A DNA stretch of 62,088 nucleotides, filler included. It is 12 parts of 12 records of this genome, joined end to end, with 100 filler letters (N's around TTAATTAATTAA, not from the genome) between each part and the next. Parts side by side here need not be neighbours in the genome. Positions count along the whole stretch, not along the records: positions 50,207 to 55,113 come from SRR15195285_1251; 11 more parts are not named here. The stretch is one strand, 5' to 3'. Below the pieces are notes generated by a model that was not told where the DNA came from, searched no databases, and was given only the letters and a program-made list of their open reading frames with translations. The position numbers and the translations under genes are program-made. Each line of letters begins with the position of its first letter. The first letter of the stretch is position 1. Positions 3,922 to 58,879 of this stretch are shown piece by piece.

Positions 3922-4021
3922 NNNNNNNNNNNNNNNNNNNNNNNNNNNNNNNNNNNNNNNNNNNNTTAATTAATTAANNNNNNNNNNNNNNNNNNNNNNN
4001 NNNNNNNNNNNNNNNNNNNNN
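3922..4021. other. Artificial contig spacer 1
   Basis: N44-TTAATTAATTAA-N44, with stops in all six frames. Confidence 0.99.
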
Positions 4022-11151: not shown

Positions 11152-11251
11152 NNNNNNNNNNNNNNNNNNNNNNNNNNNNNNNNNNNNNNNNNNNNTTAAT
11201 TAATTAANNNNNNNNNNNNNNNNNNNNNNNNNNNNNNNNNNNNNNNNNNNN
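11152..11251. other. Artificial contig spacer 2
   Basis: Same 100-nt linker. Confidence 0.99.
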
Positions 11252-17920: not shown

Positions 17921-18020
17921 NNNNNNNNNNNNNNNNNNNNNNNNNNNNNNNNNNNNNNNNNNNNTTAATTAATTAANNNNNNNNNNNNNNNNNNNNNNNN
18001 NNNNNNNNNNNNNNNNNNNN
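17921..18020. other. Artificial contig spacer 3
   Basis: Same 100-nt linker. Confidence 0.99.
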
Positions 18021-22116: not shown

Positions 22117-22216
22117 NNNNNNNNNNNNNNNNNNNNNNNNNNNNNNNNNNNNNNNNNNNNTTAATTAATTAANNNNNNNNNNNNNNNNNNNNNNNNNNNN
22201 NNNNNNNNNNNNNNNN
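22117..22216. other. Artificial contig spacer 4
   Basis: Same 100-nt linker. Confidence 0.99.
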
Positions 22217-27328: not shown

Positions 27329-27428
27329 NNNNNNNNNNNNNNNNNNNNNNNNNNNNNNNNNNNNNNNNNNNNTTAATTAATTAANNNNNNNNNNNNNNNN
27401 NNNNNNNNNNNNNNNNNNNNNNNNNNNN
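27329..27428. other. Artificial contig spacer 5
   Basis: Same 100-nt linker. Confidence 0.99.
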
Positions 27429-27429
27429 A

Positions 27430-30400
27430 GGTAGGAGGCGTGTGCTAAGTATTGACATGCCGCGCATCGCACTTGCTGTTAACGAGAGACAATATGCAAT
27501 AGTGCTAGCTCTCTACGACACTCTAATCGCATCACCGTTGTATACGCGCAGGGCTACTGCCCGCCACGAGCAGATCAAAACCCACCGCGCTATTGATGTT
27601 GAGATAGGAGTTGAGGCCGTATCTATTGATTTAACCACTGCCCTCACAGGTGAGGCTCTATGGAAGTTCCGGTGCGCCTCGATAGATATCTGCCATCAAG
27701 ATGACCTCGTGATGGTTCACCTGGGCAAAATATCTGCTTCCACCGAGTGCACTGCGTCATTTTCGTCAGAAACTGCAGAGTTCTCTCTGCTGAACACTGA
27801 CTTCTGTAGACGCTGCGATGATATCACTGACAAGCAAGTTGTTCCGGTACATTTCTGCCGCATTTCGTTGGCTAAGGCACAGCAGCAGCCGACGCTGACC
27901 GTACACCTCGGCAACATTGACTTCACCGTAACCCCAGAGTTTCTCAAAGCCGTCGTTGAATTCATCTACACGACTAAGCAGCACTATGCCTCTCTGATCA
28001 AATCTAAGGCCGAGATTGAGGCAGCCCTGACAGCGGCAGCCAATGCGCCGCGCAAGACAGATATTGTATTGACCGATGACGACGTGGTAACGGAAGATCT
28101 CACATTGACGCGAAACTGTCGACTGTATTTCAAACCTAGTGGTGCGAACACCGAAATCAAGCTGACTGGCAACGGCTTCTCCCTGCGGTTTGAAGGAGAT
28201 CAACTCGAGAATATTGACGAGGAAGCGACCGATTTGCCTGTTTCTGCAGCATATGACGACACCTCGCCCCCTCTACTCTTCGTTCCAGAGGGCGTAACGC
28301 TTTATCTTGTGGATATGGTGCTGGAGAACTTCAATACGAATGCTATTAGTCTTGGGGACAACGCACAAGTCAAAGGTGTTGTCCAGATGGCGAACCCCGT
28401 GTCCAAGGTCAGTTTGCGTGGTTCTCGGGCCAAGAACGCTTCTGCGTTCACAAGGCGTTTGACGCGTACAATCAGTGTTCCGGACACGGCGGGCATACCC
28501 GATGCGACTTCTCCGCTTGCGTCACCTGACGATGTAGTACGGTACGCCCTATTAGCTGAAAATTCATTATCACCGGGCCGAGCAATTGATGAAGACGGAG
28601 TTCTGTCACCTGGCGGTAGAAGCGCGACTGTGGAACAGGTTCCTGTAAGGAAAGCGATGCTTACTCTTCATTTGACCTCAGAGCGAGTGGAGGTGCATAT
28701 TCTAGACAGCATCTTCACGGAACCAACGCCAGCTGCGAACTCGAGGCGCCGAGGGAGCAGAAGCTCTGGTACTCTACCTAGGCACGAGCGCAGCTTTTCT
28801 GACGGTGCAAGCTGGCGATCATATGAGCATTCAAGTATGCATTCCGAGGATGGCGTTGGTATAGACGATGGCGCAGCGTCAGGAAATGAGCATGTGGACG
28901 ATGAGCTTCCAATCACGCGCGGGCTCAACCGCTTGAGAGATCCGACGATATCGAAACCCAAACTCAGCAAGCTCAAACTTTCGCAAATCACGTCAGATTA
29001 TTTGAATGAACCAATGATCGAGACGAACCGAGTAACCTCGTACTCTACATTTGATATTGGGCTTCAGCTCTCTCTGCACGTGAAGCCGATACTTGAGCGT
29101 GCCGGCATGAACATGTCGCAAAACTTAGACCCAGAGCAAAAGTCTGATATCAGTATACTGCTCGAGGCGAAGGATGTTGTCACGTCAACGACTACTAGAA
29201 TGGAACAAGACGGCACTGCCATCTCACGTGCTCAAATACTGTCGCCGACTGGTGCGACGGTTGATGTGTGCATCGAAGAGGACTTGGAAACGTACGAAGT
29301 AAACGTATCTATTGCACCTGTGCAGTTCAACGTTGCTTTTTCCACGATCCAGCTTGGAATGCTCTTCGCACGCACATATGCTTCAGTTTTAAAAGTCGAC
29401 GCGAGCAAGGTAGGGGTCGCGGTTCAGCAGAAGGAGATGCAAAAGGAGGATCATAAACGCAGCGTTCGGGTCTCGTGTCCGCTACTTTCTGGTCAGCTGG
29501 TAGATGACAGCCAAGCAGGATCAGTGTTCCCTTTGCTGAAGGCAACTGTGTCCGATCTCGACATTGCAACCGGTATCCATCGCGGCAAAGTTGAAGGAGA
29601 TGATGAAGAAGAGTACACGAAATCTAGGCTGACCATGAGGGTTTCGGCTGATTCAATGAATCAAGCTCTGGTTGAATGGGAGCCGATAATCGAGCCATGC
29701 ACGTTTGTGGTAGAGGCTGTTGTCTTCATTGAACCGAAAACAGCTGCGGCTTTTGTCGGCGATACAGAGGTTGCAATATCATCCACGGAAGCCCTGAATG
29801 TGAATATATCGCGAAACTTTTTGCTCGCGATGCAGACAGCGTTGGAAAATTGGAAATCCGTCCTGGCTGGTCCACGGTTGGCTATTTCAAATATGGAGAC
29901 AGCATACAAGGTGCGCAATGAGACTTCGGACAGCATTACGCTCTGGCTTACAGCGGGATCGTCGGTTGATCCACAAACCAACTTGCTTACGTCTGGTCAG
30001 GAGCTAGCTTTCAGCCTAGCAACAAGGGGAACCACCACAAGCGGTGAGCATGCAAAGATCTTGGTAGGCATTCCTGGCTGCAAGCCACAATTGATCGACA
30101 TGGATCGAATCGGGTTCCAACCCTATCATTTTGTAACTGAGCGTCACGCCCGCAAACCGAAGAAGGGCAAACGAGGACGTAGCCTAACTAAAAGCTTCAT
30201 CACAATTGCTTGCAACCTGTTCTTGGACGGACCAACCAAGGTTGCGAGCTTGCGCGCTGTGCTGTTTGTCGAGAACGACACAAACGATCCAATTCAGCTT
30301 ACCCTAAAAGAACCGGCTGCAGGGTTTGATGAGGACATGTTGCCGGGTGATTACATTGCGATTCGGCCTGGTGGTGGAGCCTCAATTGACGCATTTACGG

Positions 30401-33400
30401 AGAGAATCTGGGTCCGGGCCGATTCTCGCTTTCTTTGGGCGCCTGTCGATGTGCCAACGGTATCCAAAGATGGTGCTCGCACAGAGCAGGTGCAGGCCGT
30501 TTCACGCGCGATCAACCTTGCGGGAGGAGTCAACTGTTTTACTACAAGTGCAGACAGCACGAATGGTGCAGTTTCTCTTCACATCATGCCTACTCTTGCC
30601 ATTCACAACAGGCTACCGTGCATGATGAACGCTCGCGTGTACCGGTATGAAAATACCGGCAAAACGGAATGCATGTTGCCAGGCCAGAAAATGGATAAAC
30701 TGACGGCGGATAGGCAGGCGCAAGCATGGGAGGGGTCGCTTAGACCAGGTGAAGCCTCGCACCACTGTTTTGGTTCGTCTGCAGACCACCTGCTACTTTC
30801 AATCCAAGTAGACGGGTTTTCGTGGAGTCACCCAGTTATCATCGAGAGTCCGGTACACTTTGTTTCAAAGACACTGGACTTACAGGATCAGAAGCGACGC
30901 ACTCTCACACTGGGACTAGATAATCGTTTGGGGACCGAAGAGCGCTGCTGGCGTTCGGTCGCTGTCTTTTGCAGCTGCTGGATTGTCAATCTGACTGGTC
31001 TTCCGCTGTTGTACTCTGGGTCGTCGAGCGGGCTGGTTGAGCTTGCTCGTGAGGGACAGACGACCGCTGCGGGCGAACCCGCTGATGGCAATACTTCCAG
31101 CCAGCCAGTCTTATTTGGTTGGCAACGCGCGTCGTTCAAGGTTGCGGATACCACGTCTGGTGGTGGCACCTTAGCAACAATTGGAGAAACTGCGGAGACC
31201 GAGTGGTCAAAACCATTCAGTACTACTGCAATTCGAACATCGGGTGTGAGCTCAGTTGTCGAGAAGGAGACCACCAAAGATGTGCGTATCCCACCCGCTA
31301 CGGTGTTCTAACCTGCTGTAACAACTCACATAGCTTCACCGTGACGGCAAACGCGCGTTAAGAGTCACGCATTTGAAACCCTCACTAACTTCTGTGTTTG
31401 TCGTGCGAAACAGGCTGGTGGAATACGGAAAAAGGGTGTAGAGACCGACAAGGCTGCGAGCGGCCAGCGAGACTTGGCTGCCAGTATCGCAGCAGCGCTT
31501 CAATCGGGCCGCAGGCGTCGGTATGACGTCTGCGTCACGGTAGCACTAGGGAAAGGCAAGTTCCGGCGAACCAAAGTCGTTCGTCTGGAGCCACAGTTCA
31601 TGCTGCACAACCGGATCGCATCTCCGCTGGTCTGCAAACAGCACAACACCGACTTTGAAGTCTCTCTAGAGCCGAAATCTTCGTCCCCAATATGGTGGTC
31701 TGACTACTCCGAAGATCCACATGTTTGCTTCCGATCAGTCGGCGGGCACTCGACTATTCACTGGTCTGCGCCGGTCGACCCTGTCTGTGCCAACAACACA
31801 GTTGTTGTTGTCAGGGGGATGAGCCTGGAGATGCCCGATGGTTCACGGGGTGTGCGTCGCCGAAATAGCTTGAGCATGATTGATGACAACGCAAAGCAGG
31901 ATGAGCACCTTGTTCGCGTGGATAGTCAGGAGCGCGGTCAGACGGGTGGCATCTCAGTTGTAGTGCGAGACTACAATCCAAGCACGCCTGGCTATCTTGT
32001 TGAAAATCACACTGCTTTCGAGCTCCTCATTTGGCAGGAAGATGTCGAACAACCTCGGAAGCTGACGCTCCCCAAGCACCAAACTCGACCATTTGTGTGG
32101 CAGTCTCCACTCGGCAAGCGTACTGTTACGCTGCAGCTACGCGCGGACAAACAGGATGGGAAGAAACGCGCGAAGCACACGATAGGCATGGACTTCATAT
32201 TTTCAGAAGAATCGATGCAGTCTGAGGAATGGGTTGAGCAGAAGGTCATAGTCAAGACTGGTGTTCGGCCACGAGGCCCAACGAAGGTACTGCGCATTTC
32301 CTCTCGCCCTGTTAGGCGACGCTCAAGCGACCCCGGTCAAATTCACGACCCAACTTCAGTCAAGTCCACGAAGCTGGCTCGCGCGCTCGGCAGAAGGAAG
32401 CTTGATTACATGAAATTTGAAATGTTGGCTCCACAGGTGGTGTGCGCCTTGATCGACTGCAGGCCTGCCCCTATAGAGGTGCTGGTGATGAGCATGCAGG
32501 ACTTAATGTTCATTGGCGAGCTGGAGGTTGGCCAAGATCTTCAAGTGGGTGTTGAGGTCAACCGATTGCAGGTCGATAACGGCAACATCTATTCTCACTT
32601 TCCCGTCACCATTTCACCGGCTGATCTGAACTCAGTGATACCCTTCATCCAGGTTAAGGTCACGAAATCGTTGCGAGACAATACTTTAAATTCGTATCCA
32701 CATCTTTCCGTTAAGATCCAGGAGGCAAACTTGGCACTCGACGATGTCCTCCTCTCGTCTGTTGCTGAGTTTGTGACGGGCTCCATCGACTACGGCGAAG
32801 TTTCACTACAGTACGGCTTGTCTAAGGCGTCCAGTCGGCAGGAGGTGGACCCCGGTTCGGAGACTGGGCGCATTGCCAGGGCTGCAGTGGATGCAGACAT
32901 TGTGCGTATGGTGACTGGCTCTGTTGAGTTTGATGAGGGCAACGGAGTGCTCGGAAGCGACGCACAGCTGCAGGACGCGGTTCTTCCTGTACACTGTGAT
33001 CTATTGGAACTGCATCCGATATGTGTGAATTTCACCTTCGCAACTATCCAAGCTTTCGACGACACCGTGGTTGACGATGCGACCAAGGCTTTCAAGGCAT
33101 TTGCTGGTATCCTGGGTGTGACACTTGCGAATATTGACAACACACCCATCAAGCTGAACGCACTGGTCATGAGTAATGTGTTTTCAACCCAGAAACAGCT
33201 CATGGCTAGCATCTCTACATTTTACACGCGGCAGATTGCACTGGAACTCTATAAAATTCTTGGCACAGCAGACCTGATAGGCAATCCTATTGGGCTAGCC
33301 ACCAACCTTGCGACAGGTGTTTGGGACTTCTTTTACATGCCAGGGCAGGCCGTGGCGAAAAATCCATTGGATATCGGCGAAGGTTTGAAGAAGGGCACGT

Positions 33401-34034
33401 CTAGTTTGTTGTCCAATACAATGTATGGATCTTTTAACACGGTCAGCAAGGTAACTGGGACATTCGGCAAGGGTATGGCGGCGCTCTCGATGGATGATGA
33501 CTACCTTGCAAAGCGCAAGAAGTCGAAGCGTCGGTCGCGAATGCAGTCTGATCATCTGGGCCACGGGGTGGTCGCAGGTGTCGAAGGTGTTGGGAAAGGA
33601 GTTGTACAGGGCATCTCAGGCCTGATAACTTCACCGATGATGGAGGTGCAGCAGCATGGAAGTGCGGCGCTGCTCAGAGGAGTGGGCAAAGGACTCGTGG
33701 GAGCAGTGGTGAAGCCAACTGTCGGTATAGCGGATCTTGCAGAAGGGCTGTCGACAGGCATGCGCAATACGTCCGAGGTCTTTGATTATGGAGAAAAGCC
33801 AATCAAACCCCAGCATCTGCAACGGTTTCGGCCACCGCGGCCGGCGCTACCCTCCGGCGATTCAAGTGGGGCATTGACGCGTTATGATCGTGACCTGGCG
33901 TTTGCCTTCTCCTTGATTGGGAAGCACGAAAAGTACTTGTACCACGCTCGCTCTTTGCCAGCTGCAGCAGATACAGGGGGAAGCAAGGATTTAGAACCGG
34001 CCGCGCCAGAGCCAGAGCCGGAGCCAGAGCCGGA
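27430..34034 (+). CDS. VPS13: VPS13-family bridge-like lipid transfer protein, internal to C-terminal part (both ends truncated)
   Basis: WEPIIEP, VAB/SHR-BD repeats (IHNRLPC, WIVNLTGLPL, RTKVVRLEP..NR), LQVDN, GTADLIGNP..LATGVWDFFYMP, ATG2_C-like Gly-rich GVGKGLVGAVVKP, RFRPPR. Intron 31282-31413 has a CACTAAC branch point. Confidence 0.93.
34006..34034 (+). repeat. Coding (Pro-Glu)n hexamer repeat at contig end
   Basis: CCA GAG CCA GAG CCG GAG CCA GAG CCG GA, in frame with VPS13. Confidence 0.95.
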
Positions 34035-34134
34035 NNNNNNNNNNNNNNNNNNNNNNNNNNNNNNNNNNNNNNNNNNNNTTAATTAATTAANNNNNNNNNN
34101 NNNNNNNNNNNNNNNNNNNNNNNNNNNNNNNNNN
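34035..34134. other. Artificial contig spacer 6
   Basis: Same 100-nt linker. Confidence 0.99.
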
Positions 34135-38010: not shown

Positions 38011-38110
38011 NNNNNNNNNNNNNNNNNNNNNNNNNNNNNNNNNNNNNNNNNNNNTTAATTAATTAANNNNNNNNNNNNNNNNNNNNNNNNNNNNNNNNNN
38101 NNNNNNNNNN
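38011..38110. other. Artificial contig spacer 7
   Basis: Same 100-nt linker. Confidence 0.99.
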
Positions 38111-45737: not shown

Positions 45738-45837
45738 NNNNNNNNNNNNNNNNNNNNNNNNNNNNNNNNNNNNNNNNNNNNTTAATTAATTAANNNNNNN
45801 NNNNNNNNNNNNNNNNNNNNNNNNNNNNNNNNNNNNN
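45738..45837. other. Artificial contig spacer 8
   Basis: Same 100-nt linker. Confidence 0.99.
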
Positions 45838-46044: not shown

Positions 46045-49000
46045 ATGCCTCTCCAGGATTCCTTGCTCGGAGATGAGCTGGAATCACACGAGAACCGCGA
46101 CAGAAATGCTGAGTCTCGGCAAACAAACGGCACGCTGCGTCGCGCACCGTCGAACCGTCCGCGTAACAGAGCTGCGCGAATGGATCAAGACGAGCACGAG
46201 AGCAAGCGCTGCTGCTGGTGTATGCCACAGCGATGTTGCTCCATCTTCATCCCGCAACTCCTGCTGCGGTTGTTTCCACCTCTGCGGGTCTTCACGTTGA
46301 AGATCGGCACGCGGGATTGGAGTCAAACCCCTGCATGGTGCTGCATGCTCTTGGCTGGGGGGTTGCTGGATGTACTTTCGTTATTGCTGGCTTGGGTCCA
46401 AAATTTGGGCGATGGCCTCAGCACACTCAGTATCGTCGCAGCGGCAATTTGGACACCGTGCCTAGTCTGTGGCACATTACTCGTGCTGCTAGCGCTCTCA
46501 TATTCGCTGCGCAACCATTGCTGTTGCAAGAAGTGCCGCGATAAGCCGTGGAAAAGCAACTGGCCGAGGCCCTTTACGCAACTCGTTGAATTCGGTATGT
46601 ACTCAAGCGCCTTGTCGGCGCGTGAAAGCGAGACCAGTCTAAAGCCCCCTTGCTGTTGGACATGGCGTGTGTTAGGTGTTGAGGTGAACGTGCATCTTGG
46701 AGATCCCGAATCGAGCGTGCCCGGCGCCCTGGCCGATTCTGGACATGCGTCTAGCTTCAAGTTTAGGAACACGGGCACGCGTGAAAAATTCAAACCAGAT
46801 CTTAAAATCAGACCGCAACGCGGGCAGGAATTCCCCAGGTTTTGGAGTCAAGATTCCGCCAAGTGTATCTCTGACAAAGACGGTAGTGACAGAGAAATTC
46901 TCCCCACGTACGAGTGGGTGATGAAAGCCAACGATGACAATGGTTCGTGGACCCATACAAAGGAATGGCGTAAGACCGCCCCGAGCTGTGGGTGCGATGC
47001 TGGCGACTCAGTGCGGGAGACAATCCCTCGATTTCAGCTCGGCATAGATTCATCGCGTCGCGGGAAACGAGGCACAGGCATAGCTCCAGTCAAAAAAGAC
47101 GCCAACTATCCGCTTATGTTGCGGGTAGTCCATTGTCAGCACGGGTCTGACGCTAAAATGCTCCGGATTGGTGCGTTCATCAACCAACCTCAATTCTTAA
47201 CCCTGCCGGCACAGAGTCAGTCTTGCGATGTTTGGCGCTGGCATTTGCGCAGGATACTGCGTCATGTTTGAAGACGAACATGAGCTTGAGCACATCGACG
47301 TGTGTGGAACTTACGAACTAAAATACAGTTCAAAGCGGGGCGAAAAGTGTAAGTACGTCAAGGGAAGCTCAGGAAAGGGCATGCAATTGTGGCATTCCAA
47401 CCAATCAAGTCCAAAACAGGTCAGAAATGGAGCTATGGAAAGCGGCGATGGTTATTGGTTCATCTCGCGCCTTAGGTCGACTGGGGAAGAACTTCTTGAG
47501 CACGTGTACCAGAGTAAAGGCCGATATGAAGCGGGTCCTCCTACAGGCGGATGGAAGAAAGAATTTGAAGAATTTGACAGCGCTGACAGAAAAAGCTCCC
47601 TGACTGCTACAGGCATTCAGAAGTACCGCTTTGAAGTCACAACTGAGCGAAGACTAAATCTAAACCTTTCGATGGGAGGAATTCTGCCTGGTGTAGATGA
47701 TACCAACGTAGTCGAACTCCAATTGCTTAAGCTGGAGGCAATTGTATGGGGGACAATGCTCATGGCTGCAGTTTTCTTCGTTGTGTTTACATACGAAGAT
47801 AGCCTGAGGTTGCAAGAGAGGGACGACACGACATATCTTGAACGCTTACTGCCTCAAAATATTTCAATCGTGGATGCATACAGGGAGTATCTGGACGATC
47901 TGCGACGCGATGGTGTCGCTAGTAGTGAAATTAGGATGCCGATCATCATGTACTTGCTCGTTGCAATGGTTCAGGCTCATGAAGCAGCCAGCTTCAGCAC
48001 CAACGACAATCTACAAGAAATGCGCGATGATAAGTGGTATCGTAAGGTCTACCAAGCAGCACAGAGGCCTTCACGTGAAGGATCTCAGCGTCTCTTGGTT
48101 GTGAGCAGTTGTGTATGCATCGCCGGCCTCGTCGCCATGATCATCGGCTGGTACCTCTGTGGCATTGTCATGCTCTTGTTAGGTTGCCTGCTGACCCTCG
48201 GACTAGAAACAACCCGAATTCAGCTTCAGAGCTGCATGCTTTCCCTGGCAATGGGATGCGTCTGCAAACGGAAATCCGATCTTATCGGCGAGCTCAACAA
48301 TCAATTAGAACTAGTCATGGTCAGGTACGACGGGGACTTTCTTGATGCGCGTGACAGCCGCCGGAGAGATGAGCTACAGCAGACACTTGTGGAGGGAATC
48401 ACGTTCACAAAATTCCGTCGAAAAGAGTTCAAGGACTTTTTTCTCGCATATGGGCTAGACATCGAACCACTCATTGATGAGAAGATTGAGCAGCTACATG
48501 ACGACGAGACCAACGTCTTTCGGCTCGATGGCGATGAACCAATGATCGAGGTCGCAGCCGACACAGAGGATTCAATCCCCGAGGCCACACAAGCAGATGT
48601 GTGTTGTGTAAATAGCCGCGCGATATCAGATATGATCATCAAGCTTTCGCAAGCGCGTAGGCTTGTGCATGCCCGCAGCCGCTTTCGGATAATTCTGATC
48701 TTGTCTCTCCTTCATGGGATGATTCCCCTGGTACACGCAATGCTGCCTGCTCACTTGGGTGGTGGCTGTAATGAACACCAGGCTGAAGCCTCGGCCAGCT
48801 GGACAACGAGTGCACTAAGTCGCGCGACAGACTGCTACTTTTCTTCACGATCTAGTGTGGTTTTGCACTTTGTGTGTATGACCGCAAATTCGGCACTTGT
48901 CTTCAAGCTGCTTTCCCGACTTGCTCGTTGTGAACTTGACTATTATCAAAGATATTGGCACATGCTTTACTTTGTTCAAATGACACCGTGGTCAACGATT

Positions 49001-50106
49001 CGGGACGAAAAGCTTCGAGATCACTGGGGTTTGCTCCCGACGTTTGAACTCAACACCCCTGGAAATGTTGAAGCCTGGAACAAGATGAGGCTGTACTTGC
49101 AGTCGTACAAAATCAAGCAATCGAAGCACCTGCAGGTGTCTGTCGTATGGTGCTTCTTCGGTGTTTTCTGCCTATTCTTATACGAAATCCAGAAATTGAT
49201 CTTCATTCAGACTCCAAGTGCAGCAACACTCATGGTCAGTGGCACTGATACTACCGATTACGAGAAAGTCTGTTTCATGCTAACTTCTCCCGCCGCGTGT
49301 GGGCACGTGTATGAGAAGAGCACAAAGCAACCATGCATTTGGTACGATCCTGGCAAAACGTGCTTGCCGTCAAATTCCAGTCAACAGCAATGCCAAGGCT
49401 ACTGCAAAGTAAATCCCAATTGGTCGGATCTTAATGCCATACCCTGCACCGACAACCAGTGCTGCAGCAAGCGCAGCCGTGCTGGACACTTCAGTGACGA
49501 CCTCGACGGTGAATTTATCGCTGAGACTTCGTGCACGCGAAAACTGTCCAGTGGTTGGGAGAGCGGTTGTGAGTGGGTAGCCGAGGCGAAGAGCTGCCAG
49601 CTCAAGACTCAGCATTTCGACGTCGTTGCGATGTTTGCTCTGTGTGATACTCTGCTGTTTGGCATCGGACTGCTGATAACGATGTGGTCCGGAATGAAAA
49701 GCAACGAGATTAAGAAAGAGGGGTTTCCGTATATCGTTCGCATGAAGCTGAGTGAGCTATTGTCTAACTCGATGCATTTCGTTTCTGAACGCTGGCGCTG
49801 GTCCACGCCGGCTGACGCTCCTCGTGGCTGGCGAGAGTACGAGAAGGCGCTGGCACAAATAATTGAAAAGGCAATCATGGAACAAGAAGCACAGAAGGTC
49901 ACTCGTTTCACAGCAGAATTCAAAGCCATGAAATCAGAAAATGGCGTTATCAGTGAATCGCGGGTTCAGCCGCTGATCACCAGGCCACAACATATCGAAG
50001 GAGCCCTCAAGAAGTTTGCCGATAGTCGAAAACAAGACCGGCATCTTCGAGCATGTTTGCCTGCCGAGACTTCTGAGGCTGAGCCTGAGCCTGAGCCTGA
50101 GCCTGA
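46045..50106 (+). CDS. Large multi-TM protein with PHTF-like region, Cys-rich loop and WWE-like segment; 3'-truncated
   Basis: Two long ORFs joined by intron 47171-47252 (GTGCGT..GCAG). YYQRY..LPTFELNTPGNVEAWNKMRLYL resembles PHTF1/2 (VPHFRL..NIKMWLSLRSYL). RWRW..GWREY..QIIEKA is WWE-like. Ends in EPEPEP. The start is uncertain. Confidence 0.6.
50081..50106 (+). repeat. Coding (GAGCCT)n = (Glu-Pro)n repeat at contig end
   Basis: (GAGCCT)4 GA, in frame. Confidence 0.95.
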
Positions 50107-50206
50107 NNNNNNNNNNNNNNNNNNNNNNNNNNNNNNNNNNNNNNNNNNNNTTAATTAATTAANNNNNNNNNNNNNNNNNNNNNNNNNNNNNNNNNNNNNN
50201 NNNNNN
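50107..50206. other. Artificial contig spacer 9
   Basis: Same 100-nt linker. Confidence 0.99.
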
Positions 50207-50546
50207 CCTACATTGGCGCCCTGGGCACTTCGTGTACCACACTACATGTACTAATGGTAGGTATACATATGTGACCGATCCGAACCTGGGCACTCGGCAA
50301 GTTGTTGACCGTACTCCTACTCGCGCGTGGTGTCGTGGACGGACTGGCAAGTTCGCGATCGCTCGCACGATCGCACTATGCACGCATAATTTTCCAATAT
50401 AATACGCGCTCATGCAACGAACGCGTGGTACATGCACCCGCCGCGCGCGTCAGTGAATACCAACTGATACACTCTCGCTCTACGTACGTCGACGTACGTA
50501 CCTCGCCGTCGGTGCTCGTGCTGGCACATCTATAGAGTGCAGATCT

Positions 50547-53500
50547 ATGCGAGCTCCATCCCTGGTAGCCGCTGGGCCTCTGGCCCTTGCAGCGGCAGCG
50601 GCAGCGGGGAGTGTACGTACTCCGTGTACACCCAATGCGCGAGCCGCCAAATACGTCCTTCCGTGCCTCTACAGCCTCCCTGTGTACATGTACGTAGTTT
50701 CCTGGGCCAGTCTCCAGCATTTCAATGAGCCACATGGCCTGGGTGCTGGGAGGACTTTGTCCACTCGCGCAATAAAATAATAACTGTTCACCAGGCCCGA
50801 TCTGTTTTGCATTAGAATGCTGTACTGTGTTGAGTGGTTGTCATTCGTCCTGGAGCAGGTCCCCCACGTCGTGGAGCGGGCAGCCGTGGCATGGTTCGAC
50901 GCGGACTGGCCGGCAGAGCTGGGGAGTATGCCGCTGGGTAATGGCGATGTGTCAGCCAATGGTGCGTGCGAATGCGTTCATGCAGAGCTTTTGGCGCTGT
51001 GCTGACTCGTAGACCCGCGGTGCCGTCGCTGACTATCAATATTTTGTGTGCGCGCGATTGGTTGGGGCTGTCGCGGGGGAGTGTGGGGGCAGTCTGGGTC
51101 GAACGCGACACCGGCGACCTGTTAGTCTACCTGGCTAAATCAGATGCGTTCGATATCAACGCCCTTCCGATAAAGGTCGGCAGGGTCCGCTGCTCGTTCT
51201 CTCCTCCGCTTTGGACACCAGAAACCAAACGAAACGGCACATGGACTCAGATCCTCATGGTAGCCAACGGCACGATCGCTATCCAGGACGAGCTCGGTTA
51301 CAGAGTGAGCGTGTTTGTAGATGCAAATGCACCAGTGCTTCGGATGACTGGCGACCATCCAGATGGTTTTGAGGTGCACGCCGCGTTGGAGCTAGTGTAC
51401 CCACCGTCAAACTGGTACCGGAACATGACGCGCTCCTACCACGATCTCTCGCGATTGCCAGACTCACCACTTGGTCCGTTCAATGCCTCTGCGCCCAACA
51501 CGAACCCAAACGGTTTCGGTGCATACTGTCTGGAGCGGTTCTTGGAGCCTGACACAGTTGTGGGATCTGCTGCACTGAAGGACATCGCTGCACTGCAGCA
51601 CAGTGTTGTGTGGTATCACCGAAACATCGATACGGCGCCAGCGCATGGCGTGCCCACTTACTACCGGAACGTCATGCAGACCCAAGGATTGGATCCAGAC
51701 GCGTTTCCCGACCCGCTATTAGGTCGCACGTTCGGCGCCAGTATGGCTGGAGGTGGATTTGCGAAGCTCGATGGAAGCGACGATGTCCTCACTGCATCTA
51801 GTGCACCAGGCAGTGCGCCCTTGGTACTTGAGGTCACACTGCAGACGGTCGAGGCGTGTCCAGACGAGGCTGCATTTTTGAAATCACTATCCGCAACGGT
51901 AACGTCAGAAGCAGCGCGAGGTTCGTTATCGAGGAAAGCTGCCGCTCACGACGGCGTGTGGGAGCAGCTGTGGAATCGTTCCCACGTTGATATCTCCGTC
52001 AGGACTCTGGGTCCAGACCAGCCAGTGTCACAGACTTCGCGACAAAAGCTTGTCGATCCGAGCAGTGTTGAGTCTGTGAACAATGCGTATGTATGGCAGC
52101 GTTACCTTGATCTGTGCGATGGACGGAACAGCTACGGCATAATCAAGTTCAACGGGCAGGCGTTCACGACAAGCCTCAACGGAACCCAGCAAGGCCACAA
52201 GCCTGGGATAGTATCCGCAGACTACCGCGACTGGGGCCCGGGGAACTGGATCCAAAACGCTCGGCAGCCGTACTATGCTGCGCTTTCTGCAGGCGATTCC
52301 GATGTGATCGTTGGGATGCTGCGGTACTTCAATCGCAGCCTACCAGTGGCTCGGGCACGTGTGAATGTGACGATGGGAATCGGTGGTGCATTCTGGCCTG
52401 AGACCTCTACATTGTTTGGGACCTATGACGCAGCGTTCTTGGGATACGGATGCAACGGCTCCACATCAGACGGATCCTTTGTTGCTGCAGAACCAGCACC
52501 GTATACAGTTGCTAGAGATAGCCGACACGGTGCGCCGCCTACGGTGCCCGCAGTTAATGGTTACACGCGTTTTTACACCTCCGGAAGTCTTGAAGTATGC
52601 TTGATTGGTCTGGAAGACTACTCTCGCTCAATGAACGAGGAGACGCTGAGGGAATTGACGCTCCCGATCTGCGATGCTGTTGTGGAGTTTTATAGGGAAA
52701 GATTCAACAACACGAATGCTTCAACGGGCAAGTTGGACCTGTTTCCGTCGCAGGTGATTGAGAGCTTCTGGTGTGGCAATGGTGGCGCAGGAACAAACGC
52801 GTGGGGTCACGTAGACGAGACAGGGAAGCTCCTACGACCATACTCTAGGAGCGAGTGCCCAACAAATGGAGTTCCAGATGTGGCAGGTCTGCGCGCGGTT
52901 CTACCAAAGCTACTGGCGTTGCCCAAAGATCTATTAGCAGATCGATACGCAGACAGTGCTGCCGCTTGGGCTGCATCACTCGAGCTCTTGCCTCCACTTG
53001 CGCTTGAAGAGTGCCATTGGGGACAGCAGACTCCACCAGATCGAACGGCATCCACAATGCGTCTGCACGCACGACAAGTGAACATGGGCTGTCGCAAGTG
53101 TGCACCGAATCACAACAAAACAAGCTGCTGGTGCAACGGCCATACTCCCTGCTATCCTCCAACCAACAAGAGCACCATTGTTGCCATCGCAGGAGATTAC
53201 ACTGGTATCCGCGAACACAACCACGAGAACCACGCGGCCTACTCAATTTGGCCCTTCCGTCAGTACGCCGTCGGCAAGCCAGACATTGACATCGGAGTCG
53301 CCACTTATAAGCATCGGCCGCACCCGTGTACTCACAACTGGTGTCAAGATGTTGCTGATGCTGCCGTGCTGGGCTTGGCAACGGATGCTGCCACTCAGAT
53401 CGTCGAGCGTGCTACAGCACCCCCACTGTCTTCTCGGGATGGTACGGTGCGCTTCCTGGGGTTCTCACAGCACTACGAAGACTATGCCCCTGCAGTTGAT

Positions 53501-54931
53501 CACTTGTCAATGATGCGAATTGCAGTGAATGAGATGCTACTTGGACAGCTGGATGACTCAGTGCAAACCATCACTGTGTTTCCTGGATGGCCCAGTGGCT
53601 GGAATGTAGACTTCAAACTCAAGGGGGCGCGCAACACGACCGTTGAGGCGGCCTGCACGGACGGTAAACTGACAAAGTTCATTGTCACTCCAGAGGCCAG
53701 GAAGGTAGATGTACAGGTTCACAATTGCAAAGCAGGCTGGCCACTCAAGAGCGATGATTCTTTGAGTCTCGTACATACGATACACAACTGTTCTGGCTCG
53801 AAACACTGTGACGGTCTATCTTATGTTGTGCAAGCACGCTCGTATCCGAGCTCGCCTAAAGATCTGGTGGCTACCATGAGGGGTGGCGGTGTCGCCGTGT
53901 GGCGATGGGCGTCTGAGCCACCGGACACCCTGCTGGGGCTTACTGCGCCTACGCTGGGGGTCCGTTCGTTTGTCTTGCCTGGTGTCCCTACGGAGGGACA
54001 GGACTCGCTTGGTAATCTGCTTGTGGTGGTTGAGCTGAATCATGGTATTATCACTCTGGACTGGCCATCGATGAAAGTACGAGGCCGAGTCAACATCTCT
54101 GTCTCGGGCGCGCTGCATTGTAAAATCTGGTTTCACGAACGCACAAATCGCACGTTTGCGGTGGTCACGACTGGTCTCACGCACGTTGAAGCTGATCGAA
54201 ACTATCTTGTGGCAGTCGAGGTGACCAATCGTGATTCTCCTCGAGAGGTTGCCAAGGTTGAAACGCCAGTGGTGGCCACCGAGGGAGTGCTAGTGGTCAG
54301 TGACCACGCATATGTTGGGGGCTACGTCCCCGACAACAAGTTCTCTTCCGTAGATCTTGCCGGATTGGTTAAGAATCCCGCAACTTTGCGCGTCATCTCA
54401 ACTGTAGGGCCAAGGCCAGAGTTTGATAACATGGTTGGGGCTTTGCAAAATAGCTCGTTTCGATCGGCCGAGAACGCCGTCGGTCGGCTCCCTTTGATGT
54501 TTTTTGGAAGTTATGCACGACCGGGTGGTCTCTTGATCTTTCAGTCGCATGCAGATGGCACTCTACAAGCAGAGCCGGTCGGCAAGCTGATCACGCAGGA
54601 CTCCTCACGTGCCAACCGTGTCCACATTCACCCGAGCAATGACTACGCGCTGCTTGCGCTGGAGAAGGGCGTGGCGGGGACGGACACCCCGCCGGTTGGT
54701 GAAACAGGCGGGCTGGCGGTTGTTGATATTCGGGATCCGGCAGCGCCCACGCTTGTGGCGCGGGCAGTGTCGCCAGAAACCGGGGGGCGGGTCTACACCG
54801 CCAGTTGGTCACCGTCGGGGCGGTTCCTCGTGTCGTTCTCGGCCCAGAATCGCAGTGCCTTCATATACTCTTTTGTGGACCGCGCGGAGACCCAGGCATT
54901 GGCAAGACATGTGCGTGCGGGCGGTCATTGA
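50547..54931 (+). CDS. Secreted DUF5703/GH95-like (alpha/alpha)6 glycoside hydrolase fused to a beta-propeller (LVIVD-like) module
   Basis: Signal-peptide-like exon 1. SMPLGNGDVSAN|VWVE..YLAKSDAFD via intron 50962-51092. IKFNG, DYRDWG..WIQNARQPY, GAFWPET, HENHAAYSIWPF, PGWPSGWNVDFKL. Second module has LVAVEVTN and GGLAVVDIRDPAAP. First-intron boundaries are uncertain. Confidence 0.8.
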
Positions 54932-55003
54932 ATCTCAGAGCGAGACTAACACGATGCCCCGAGTATGAATCTTAGAGCGAAACTAACACGATGGCCCCGA
55001 GTA
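54929..55003. repeat. 37/38-bp tandem duplication beginning at the stop codon
   Basis: tgaatctcagagcgagactaacacgatgccccgagta followed by tgaatcttagagcgaaactaacacgatggccccgagta. Confidence 0.9.
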
Positions 55004-55086
55004 TGGCTTTTCATGAAAACAATCACTTGCGTTTGCAATAGCAACGTGTAGTCGTGCACAACTGTACTAGATAAGTGTACTGATAG

Positions 55087-55113
55087 CTCTCTCTCTCTCT
55101 CTCTCTCTCTCTC
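55087..55113. repeat. (CT)n microsatellite at contig end
   Basis: About 13 CT units. Confidence 0.95.
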
Positions 55114-55213
55114 NNNNNNNNNNNNNNNNNNNNNNNNNNNNNNNNNNNNNNNNNNNNTTAATTAATTAANNNNNNNNNNNNNNNNNNNNNNNNNNNNNNN
55201 NNNNNNNNNNNNN
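55114..55213. other. Artificial contig spacer 10
   Basis: Same 100-nt linker. Confidence 0.99.
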
Positions 55214-58779: not shown

Positions 58780-58879
58780 NNNNNNNNNNNNNNNNNNNNN
58801 NNNNNNNNNNNNNNNNNNNNNNNTTAATTAATTAANNNNNNNNNNNNNNNNNNNNNNNNNNNNNNNNNNNNNNNNNNNN
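58780..58879. other. Artificial contig spacer 11
   Basis: Same 100-nt linker. Confidence 0.99.

Follow-up and report, generated by a model that had tools for sequence, protein, structure and literature searches.

Why should the seam between two unrelated modules of a secreted protein carry a short and specific word? The question arises at a gene on one contig (SRR15195285_1251, positions 50207-55113) within a 62,088-nucleotide (nt) stretch of DNA, hereafter the window, along which all positions are counted. In this gene, a glycoside hydrolase (GH) and a seven-bladed beta-propeller share one reading frame, and the hexapeptide P-L-K-S-D-D lies between them. An earlier note on the sequence had proposed that L-K-[ST]-D-D is a cleavage tag through which one signal-peptide-bearing open reading frame (ORF) yields several secreted enzymes. 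Here, we find that the word recurs at module borders in relatives of the propeller in a pattern that points to selection on the word itself, and we tentatively rank a processing or separator site first among the explanations.

The motif lies in a short linker between two complete modules

The frame that contains the motif is open on the plus strand from 50942 to 54931, where it ends in a TGA stop (54929-54931). In a 1197-residue model of both modules (predicted local distance difference test [pLDDT] 79.8), the sole low-confidence gap between the modules covers residues 800-806 (G-W-P-L-K-S-D; pLDDT below 50). Because this gap separates two confident domains, the motif falls in a linker that is short and presumably exposed. 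Two residues after the D-D, the propeller begins with its first strand, LSLVHTI, at nt 53762. Codons, module ends, and the low-confidence gap all confirm that PLKSDD stands at the exact junction, as the earlier note had stated. Strain variants in public contigs flank the motif at 53733 (Ala to Val), 53739 (Trp to Ser), and 53776 (His to Gln); the sole change inside it, in what is a very small sample, is a synonymous G to A at 53749 in the Lys codon.

The upstream module matches the Pfam family DUF5703_N at 96.7 bits (cut-off 26.7; E 2.6e-27) and, in three stretches, the solved GH139 chains 9hmb_A (E 6.4e-51) and 9hyq_A (E 6.4e-37), which are described as 2-O-methyl-fucosidases of a family built like GH95 (PMC12282258). 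Whole-chain similarity thus places the module, as a prediction, in glycoside hydrolase family 139; no paper on DUF5703 was found in the literature searched. The build expected of the family is an N-terminal beta domain, an (alpha/alpha)6 toroid, and a small C-terminal beta-sandwich. The two-module model (m8734c0da3661), which omits exons 1 and 2 and residues 1-124 of the long ORF (P0001 numbering), shows beta structure, a long helical region, and beta strands ahead of the linker. The alignments to both solved chains end 3-4 residues short of the chain C-termini, at query residue ~919. A search with residues 40-935 as the query returned 26 relatives of the hydrolase; the five closest of eukaryote type, one of them labelled Pelomyxa and one from EukProt, are free-standing and stop 2-5 residues past the ..V.V.NCK/NCA word. 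Since the solved chains and these five proteins end there, we place the end of the enzyme at HNCKAG, the last residues before the linker, and the earlier statement that the hydrolase reaches its family C-terminus stands. Neither a fusion nor a terminal motif was present in any of the 26 relatives, indicating that in the window gene the motif arrived with the fusion or with the propeller.

Using an alignment of 35 relatives, AlphaFold2 predicted the downstream 390 residues as a 7-bladed propeller (pLDDT 87.2; predicted template modelling score 0.87), and the model contains seven four-stranded blades. The top VIA-align match was Lp49 (3bws; Z 32.8, root-mean-square deviation 3.5, 311 aligned), with YncE at Z 29.2 and the archaeal YVTN protein 1l0q at 28.0. 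Numerous unrelated WD40 propellers lie within 3-5 Z units of the top match and, because they score nearly as high, the comparison identifies the fold and not the function. The Atlas clusters nearest to the propeller are 100% LVIVD (score 0.92). Against the Pfam LVIVD cut-off of 20.2 bits, the window protein scores below (17.8 bits) and its relative P0002 above (23.2 bits), and NCBIfam gave no match for five proteins. Foldseek and VIA-align returned generic 7-blade propellers only, and neither these searches nor Pfam and the Atlas clusters pointed to a catalytic family or enzyme signature. The propellers that it resembles include surface proteins, namely the leptospiral surface antigen Lp49 and the archaeal S-layer YVTN protein, and it looks like a non-catalytic accessory module of surface type. 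The proposal that one ORF yields several secreted enzymes is therefore not borne out by the window gene, whose propeller lacks an enzyme signature.

The fusion gene is continuous and eukaryotic

The product of exon 1 opens with a short basic segment that leads into an Ala/Leu-rich stretch and, judged by eye, resembles a signal peptide. The relatives P0179-P0182 and P0002 start in a similar way, and in the free-standing P0179 the signal peptide stands immediately ahead of the same mature N-terminus. When joined across two putative 5′ introns (Table 1), the three exons read through without interruption as a 1335-codon model, with splicing predicted from three-frame translation and the free-standing relatives. 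Contigs from RNA libraries did not confirm this splicing: X11 record 9 across intron 1 and record 10 across intron 2 are both unspliced, with no joints reported, and DNA or pre-mRNA could be their source. Of the signal-peptide-bearing ORF described earlier, the plausible signal-like start is retained, but it sits on a separate exon, with two putative introns in the 5′ part of the gene. With these two putative introns, and with an exon set apart for the signal-peptide-like start, the fusion gene is eukaryotic.

We also considered an assembly chimera or an intron at the module junction. Both are ruled out by independent contigs that bridge the junction with no joint reported, a 1644-nt contig from a DNA run (53042-54685) and a 307-nt contig from an RNA library (53524-53830). 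Positions 53200-54300 are present in part in 19 listed runs from 17 studies, all of them seawater, marine, or aquatic; 6 of the runs are RNA libraries. The open frame, the AlphaFold2 fold, and the bridging contigs together bear out the earlier description of an unrelated, complete propeller following in the same frame, with no stop and no intron at the junction.

Two complete units, the GH139-like module and the propeller, thus share one frame behind a single putative N-terminal signal. The best explanation is that the gene product is one secreted precursor comprising a signal peptide, a GH139-like glycosidase, an 8-residue exposed linker with PLKSDD, and a 7-bladed LVIVD-type propeller.

The motif recurs at borders in propeller relatives

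Searches for relatives of the propeller returned 7 proteins in the 726-2312 amino acid (aa) range and 8 in the 217-693 aa range, including the window's own fragment, and a profile search of 1.84 billion representatives returned 147. The relatives from all searches are metagenomic. For one fragment, with at least 90% identity to P0004, the EukProt label is that of a Picozoa single-cell assembly, which we treat as a lead only.

Among 18 non-redundant proteins (10,279 aa), K[STM]DD occurs nine times, compared to a mean of 0.08 in 2000 residue shuffles (maximum 2). All nine sites lie at module borders or shortly past a signal peptide, as the earlier note had envisaged, and none lies within a recognised domain. 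Its mention of LKTDD-like words between domains of uncultured marine protist proteins also agrees with the searches, which returned KTDD-like words there. In a pattern that the note had proposed to check, each module occurs free-standing or with other partners, and the same motif recurs at those other junctions, next to GH3, GH18-like, and GH51-C/GH43-like modules and others (Table 1).

These counts bear on one alternative, that an ordinary linker happens to read KSDD. The single instance in the window is what chance would give, but nine sites in the relatives against 0.08 expected, all of them at borders, make coincidence extremely improbable.

We aligned the nine sites on the Lys; K, D, and D are invariant by choice of sites. 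Pro occupies position -2 in five of the nine and Thr or Ser position +1 in eight, and Leu at -1 is not conserved. As read from this alignment, the conserved core is P-x-K-[TS]-D-D, which replaces the L-K-[ST]-D-D consensus originally put forward. A scan of metagenome contigs for the motif found two loci only, L001 (the P0002 gene) and L002 (a distant fragment), and a scan of viral contigs found none. The sequence search of the PDB gave no match for P0002, P0005, or P0015.

The multi-module P0006 (GH51-C, GH43-like, and others; 1209 aa) contains only the C-terminal half of the propeller, fused directly to a GH43/GH117-like module. The same sequence was found on 7 contigs, and P0006 may be a rearranged mosaic gene. 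P0011 has a long Gly/Ser stretch where others carry the motif.

The pattern points to selection on the word

A recurring word could have been copied along with the module beside it. In that case, the motif would be a neutral leftover from an N-terminal extension that the ancestral propeller cassette possessed, carried along by domain shuffling and decaying in many lineages. Six of the nine sites stand immediately before the propeller, the Pro at -2 is common to five, many relatives lack the motif, and the states E-T-D-Y (P0010) and K-M-D-D (P0005) look like decay, all of which would be expected of such a leftover.

The surroundings of the motif tell otherwise. Across 20 flanking columns around the Lys, mean identity is 8.6%, a random level, while the word is intact in four separate subclades. 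The distance from the D-D to the first propeller strand is 1, 5, 6, 15, or 27 residues, and P0006 carries the motif at borders other than the propeller N-terminus. At the DNA level, the window codons (Table 1) differ from those of L001 (CCG TGG AAG ACA GAC GAC), and for this reason we rejected a DNA-level "seam" as the source of the word.

We examined the history of the motif on a propeller tree of 21 sequences, of which 18 were scored and three (P0010, P0012, and P0055) were set aside for unclear N-termini. The six motif-bearing rows among the 18 require six state changes, and the motif state differs within the sister pairs P0058/P0069 (support 100), P0015/P0053 (88), and P0002/P0065 (80). 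Diverged flanks, variable spacing, differing codons, and six changes on the tree argue against a copied cassette, and we regard the leftover explanation as quite unlikely; it and the chance explanation both fit the data poorly. On the evidence of the alignments and the tree, the motif has been kept or re-created, through gains or losses alike, while its surroundings vary, a mark of selection acting on the word itself.

A processing site is the leading candidate function

The analyses above establish the position of the motif, its recurrence, its selection at the protein level, and its exposed, flexible context. We hypothesize that, in the secreted modular proteins of one uncultured group of marine protists, selection maintains P-x-K-[T/S]-D-D where unrelated modules meet and where short N-terminal pro-segments end. 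There it would be recognised by an endoprotease acting in the secretory or digestive pathway, which would free the upstream segment, whether enzyme or pro-peptide, from the module that follows; Kex2 sites have this role in the pro-domain and repeat effectors of fungi. From the pattern we infer the cleavage itself, the scissile bond, and the protease.

We rank a lineage-specific processing or separator site first because of where the motif occurs: after short N-terminal segments, between modules, once as a tandem pair, and in an exposed linker at the end of an upstream domain. Even so, we hold this reading tentatively, at somewhat short of an even chance. The larger proposal, in which an abundant but uncultured lineage of marine protists uses the word as the cleavage signal of a new processing protease, such that one signal-peptide gene delivers several carbohydrate-degrading modules (a eukaryotic secreted polyprotein system for carbohydrate-active enzymes [CAZymes]), is more doubtful, although possible.

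Several observations weigh against processing. Accessory CAZyme modules usually act while attached, and the propeller looks accessory. Within the window, the six-frame translation contains K[ST]DD a single time, which agrees with the single instance reported earlier and is the background level, and the relaxed form [KR][STM][DE][DE] occurs once in 15,024 aa (21 long ORFs). All examples in relatives were ascertained via the propeller; sites 1 and 2 of P0006 are the only ones at borders not adjoining it. Twelve of the 18 propeller proteins scored have no motif, many of them being propellers directly behind a signal peptide. Homologous fusions without the motif, which the earlier note had named beforehand as evidence against its proposal, do exist: P0004 is joined to a Kelch partner by a 13-Gly linker, and P0007 has a Gln-run linker. 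The closest relative, P0010 (76-78% identical), has E-T-D-Y where the window has K-S-D-D. The motif and a large upstream module do not go together at a significant level (4/6 vs 2/12; Fisher p 0.107), and the independent pairs are too few. One bacterial GH139-type protein and four distant propeller fragments (P0062, P0078, P0141, and P0150) have K[STM]DD within a domain. Finally, the single Lys followed by Thr/Ser-Asp-Asp differs from Kex2 sites and matches no convertase site known from the source consulted on that system (PMC8528282).

In the four propeller fragments, the word belongs to a loop, PLEKSDDG(A/S)ERGG, that aligns with ALEKGVAGTD..GETGG of the window propeller. This shared in-fold loop indicates that the same four letters arise within the fold in another subfamily.

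The same selection and exposed position would be expected if the motif were a selected linker element that is never cut, with enzyme and propeller staying joined. It might then be modified in the secretory pathway, through O-glycosylation or phosphorylation of the Thr/Ser beside the acidic residues, or serve as a docking or sorting peptide, which could be read by a receptor or by a wall or scale component. A Thr or Ser follows the Lys at all sites but that of P0005, where Met at +1 speaks against such modification. The propeller, with its lack of a catalytic signature and its resemblance to Lp49, YncE, and the archaeal S-layer YVTN protein, fits an accessory that acts in cis. At the same place, motif-free relatives join their modules by poly-Gly, Gly/Ser, or poly-Gln linkers; as these plain linkers suffice, the motif is not required merely for joining modules. 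However, in P0002 and P0058 the motif follows short N-terminal segments with no upstream module, an arrangement more typical of pro-peptide borders, and no modifying enzyme or receptor is known. On balance, we rank an uncut element second, as possible but not the expected outcome, and we retain the processing or separator site as the first candidate.

Relation to known systems

Kex2 (kexin) sites are described as KR, RR, or LxxR, with Arg at P1, and in fungal effectors with a pro-domain (K2PP) or repeats the presence of a Kex2 motif is often the main evidence (PMC8528282). Like the Kex2 sites described in that source, the present motif is short, lies in a disordered stretch, and occurs after an N-terminal pro-segment and between units of a secreted precursor; here there is also a tandem pair 6 residues apart. 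Its sequence is not of the Kex2/furin type: the nine sites read x-x-K-[TSM]-D-D, with Arg before the Lys only in P0058. The units also differ, being large, unrelated, enzyme-size modules instead of peptides or repeats.

For the dinoflagellate polyproteins (LHC, Rubisco II, and luciferase), cleavage into separate proteins is accepted (PMC11453091). As described there, these are plastid-bound tandem copies of one protein, whereas the modules here differ from one another and are extracellular or digestive, and their cleavage is only predicted.

Other lineage-specific export or processing motifs lie shortly past the signal peptide and are based on Arg and Leu, namely PEXEL and TEXEL in apicomplexans and RxLR in oomycetes. 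The resemblance is to P0002 and P0058, where a short motif stands tens of residues past the signal peptide; the known motifs have another sequence, belong to parasites, and are not known to lie between modules. Ordinary modular CAZymes resemble the window gene in pairing a catalytic with a non-catalytic beta-rich module across a short exposed linker. To our knowledge, the linkers of such enzymes are of low complexity and have no conserved word, whereas here one particular word persists in a linker that otherwise varies freely.

In the literature searched (KTDD, longer variants, and polyprotein, linker, and protist terms, with supplementary files outside the search), we found no paper describing a P-x-K-[TS]-D-D motif. 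Punctuating motifs in secreted precursors are already known; what that literature did not yield is the word itself, the eukaryotic marine lineage that carries it, and its placement between CAZyme-type modules of different kinds.

The window and its other genes

The window is made up of 12 contigs of 3.2-7.6 kb, from a binned or single-cell assembly, separated by spacers and is not one piece of a chromosome (Table 1). As separate contigs were joined, neighbouring genes provide no evidence of linkage. On the contigs beside that of the fusion gene lie common eukaryotic genes (UGGT, VPS13, ABC transporters, a cyclic-nucleotide-gated channel, MORN/GAF, HMGL, and others). Because these remaining genes are housekeeping genes, the window cannot be used to test for enrichment of the motif in secreted proteins.

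At 27430-34032, two consecutive long ORFs on one contig (1293 and 896 aa) both match the VPS13 adaptor-binding domain, one at profile positions 52-376 and the other at 382-569, and probably represent a single gene divided by a short intron or a frame change. At 47201-50104, a 968-residue ORF without a Pfam family has Glu-Pro repeats at the contig end.

Table 1. Features of the fusion gene and the window, and motif sites in propeller relatives
Feature	Position	Strand	Sequence or composition	Context or basis
Exon 1	50547..50612	+	ATG at 50547; 22 codons (66 nt); signal-peptide-like start, Ala/Leu-rich	Open from ATG to GTACGT donor; splicing predicted
Putative intron 1	50613..50858	+	246 nt, GT..AG	Homology and in-frame stops
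Exon 2	50859..50961	+	Hydrolase N-terminal strand (..FDADW..PLGNGDVSAN); GTGCGT donor	Aligns with N-termini of P0179, P0180, and P0181
Putative intron 2	50962..51092	+	131 nt, GT..AG	Frame restored between exon 2 and long exon
GH139-like glycoside hydrolase body	51093..53737	+	Ends in family C-terminus ..VDVQVHNCKAG	Pfam, solved chains, relatives
Inter-module linker	53738..53761	+	W-PLKSDD-S, 8 residues	Low-confidence gap in two-module model
Motif	53741..53758	+	P-L-K-S-D-D; CCA CTC AAG AGC GAT GAT	Read from sequence
Seven-bladed beta-propeller	53762..54874	+	LVIVD/YVTN type	AlphaFold2, fold search, Pfam
C-terminal tail and stop	54875..54931	+	Low-confidence helix; TGA	
Identical spacers (first six of 11)	3922-4021, 11152-11251, 17921-18020, 22117-22216, 27329-27428, 34035-34134		44 N, TTAATTAATTAA, 44 N	
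Identical spacers (remaining five)	38011-38110, 45738-45837, 50107-50206, 55114-55213, 58780-58879		44 N, TTAATTAATTAA, 44 N	
P0003 (with fragment P0048)			VPTKTDD (P0048 VPRKTDD)	Upstream: GH3 C-terminal domain and Fn3-like; then propeller
P0015	Lys at 420		PVKTDD	Upstream: GH18-like barrel aligned to residue 415
P0005			LPLKMDD	Upstream: 375-residue module without assigned family
P0002			RPWKTDD	Upstream: signal peptide and about 17 residues
P0058			ARKTDD	Upstream: signal peptide and about 45 residues
P0006 site 1			IKTDD	After last strand of Alpha-L-AF_C domain
P0006 site 2	Six residues past site 1		QKSDD	Ahead of GH43/GH117-like module
P0006 site 3	Five residues past last propeller strand		HKTDD	Ahead of further module

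Significance

Recognition of short processing and sorting motifs such as Kex2 sites, PEXEL, and RxLR made entire secretomes predictable. The P-x-K-[TS]-D-D border word has been seen in sequences of uncultured marine eukaryotes only. Were it a mere linker habit, the motif would still be a useful marker for the gene family. If it is a site of cutting or handling, the mature borders of digestive or secreted glycosidases would become readable in metagenomes, and the word would point to a new protease-substrate pair and show how protists package different enzymes in one gene.

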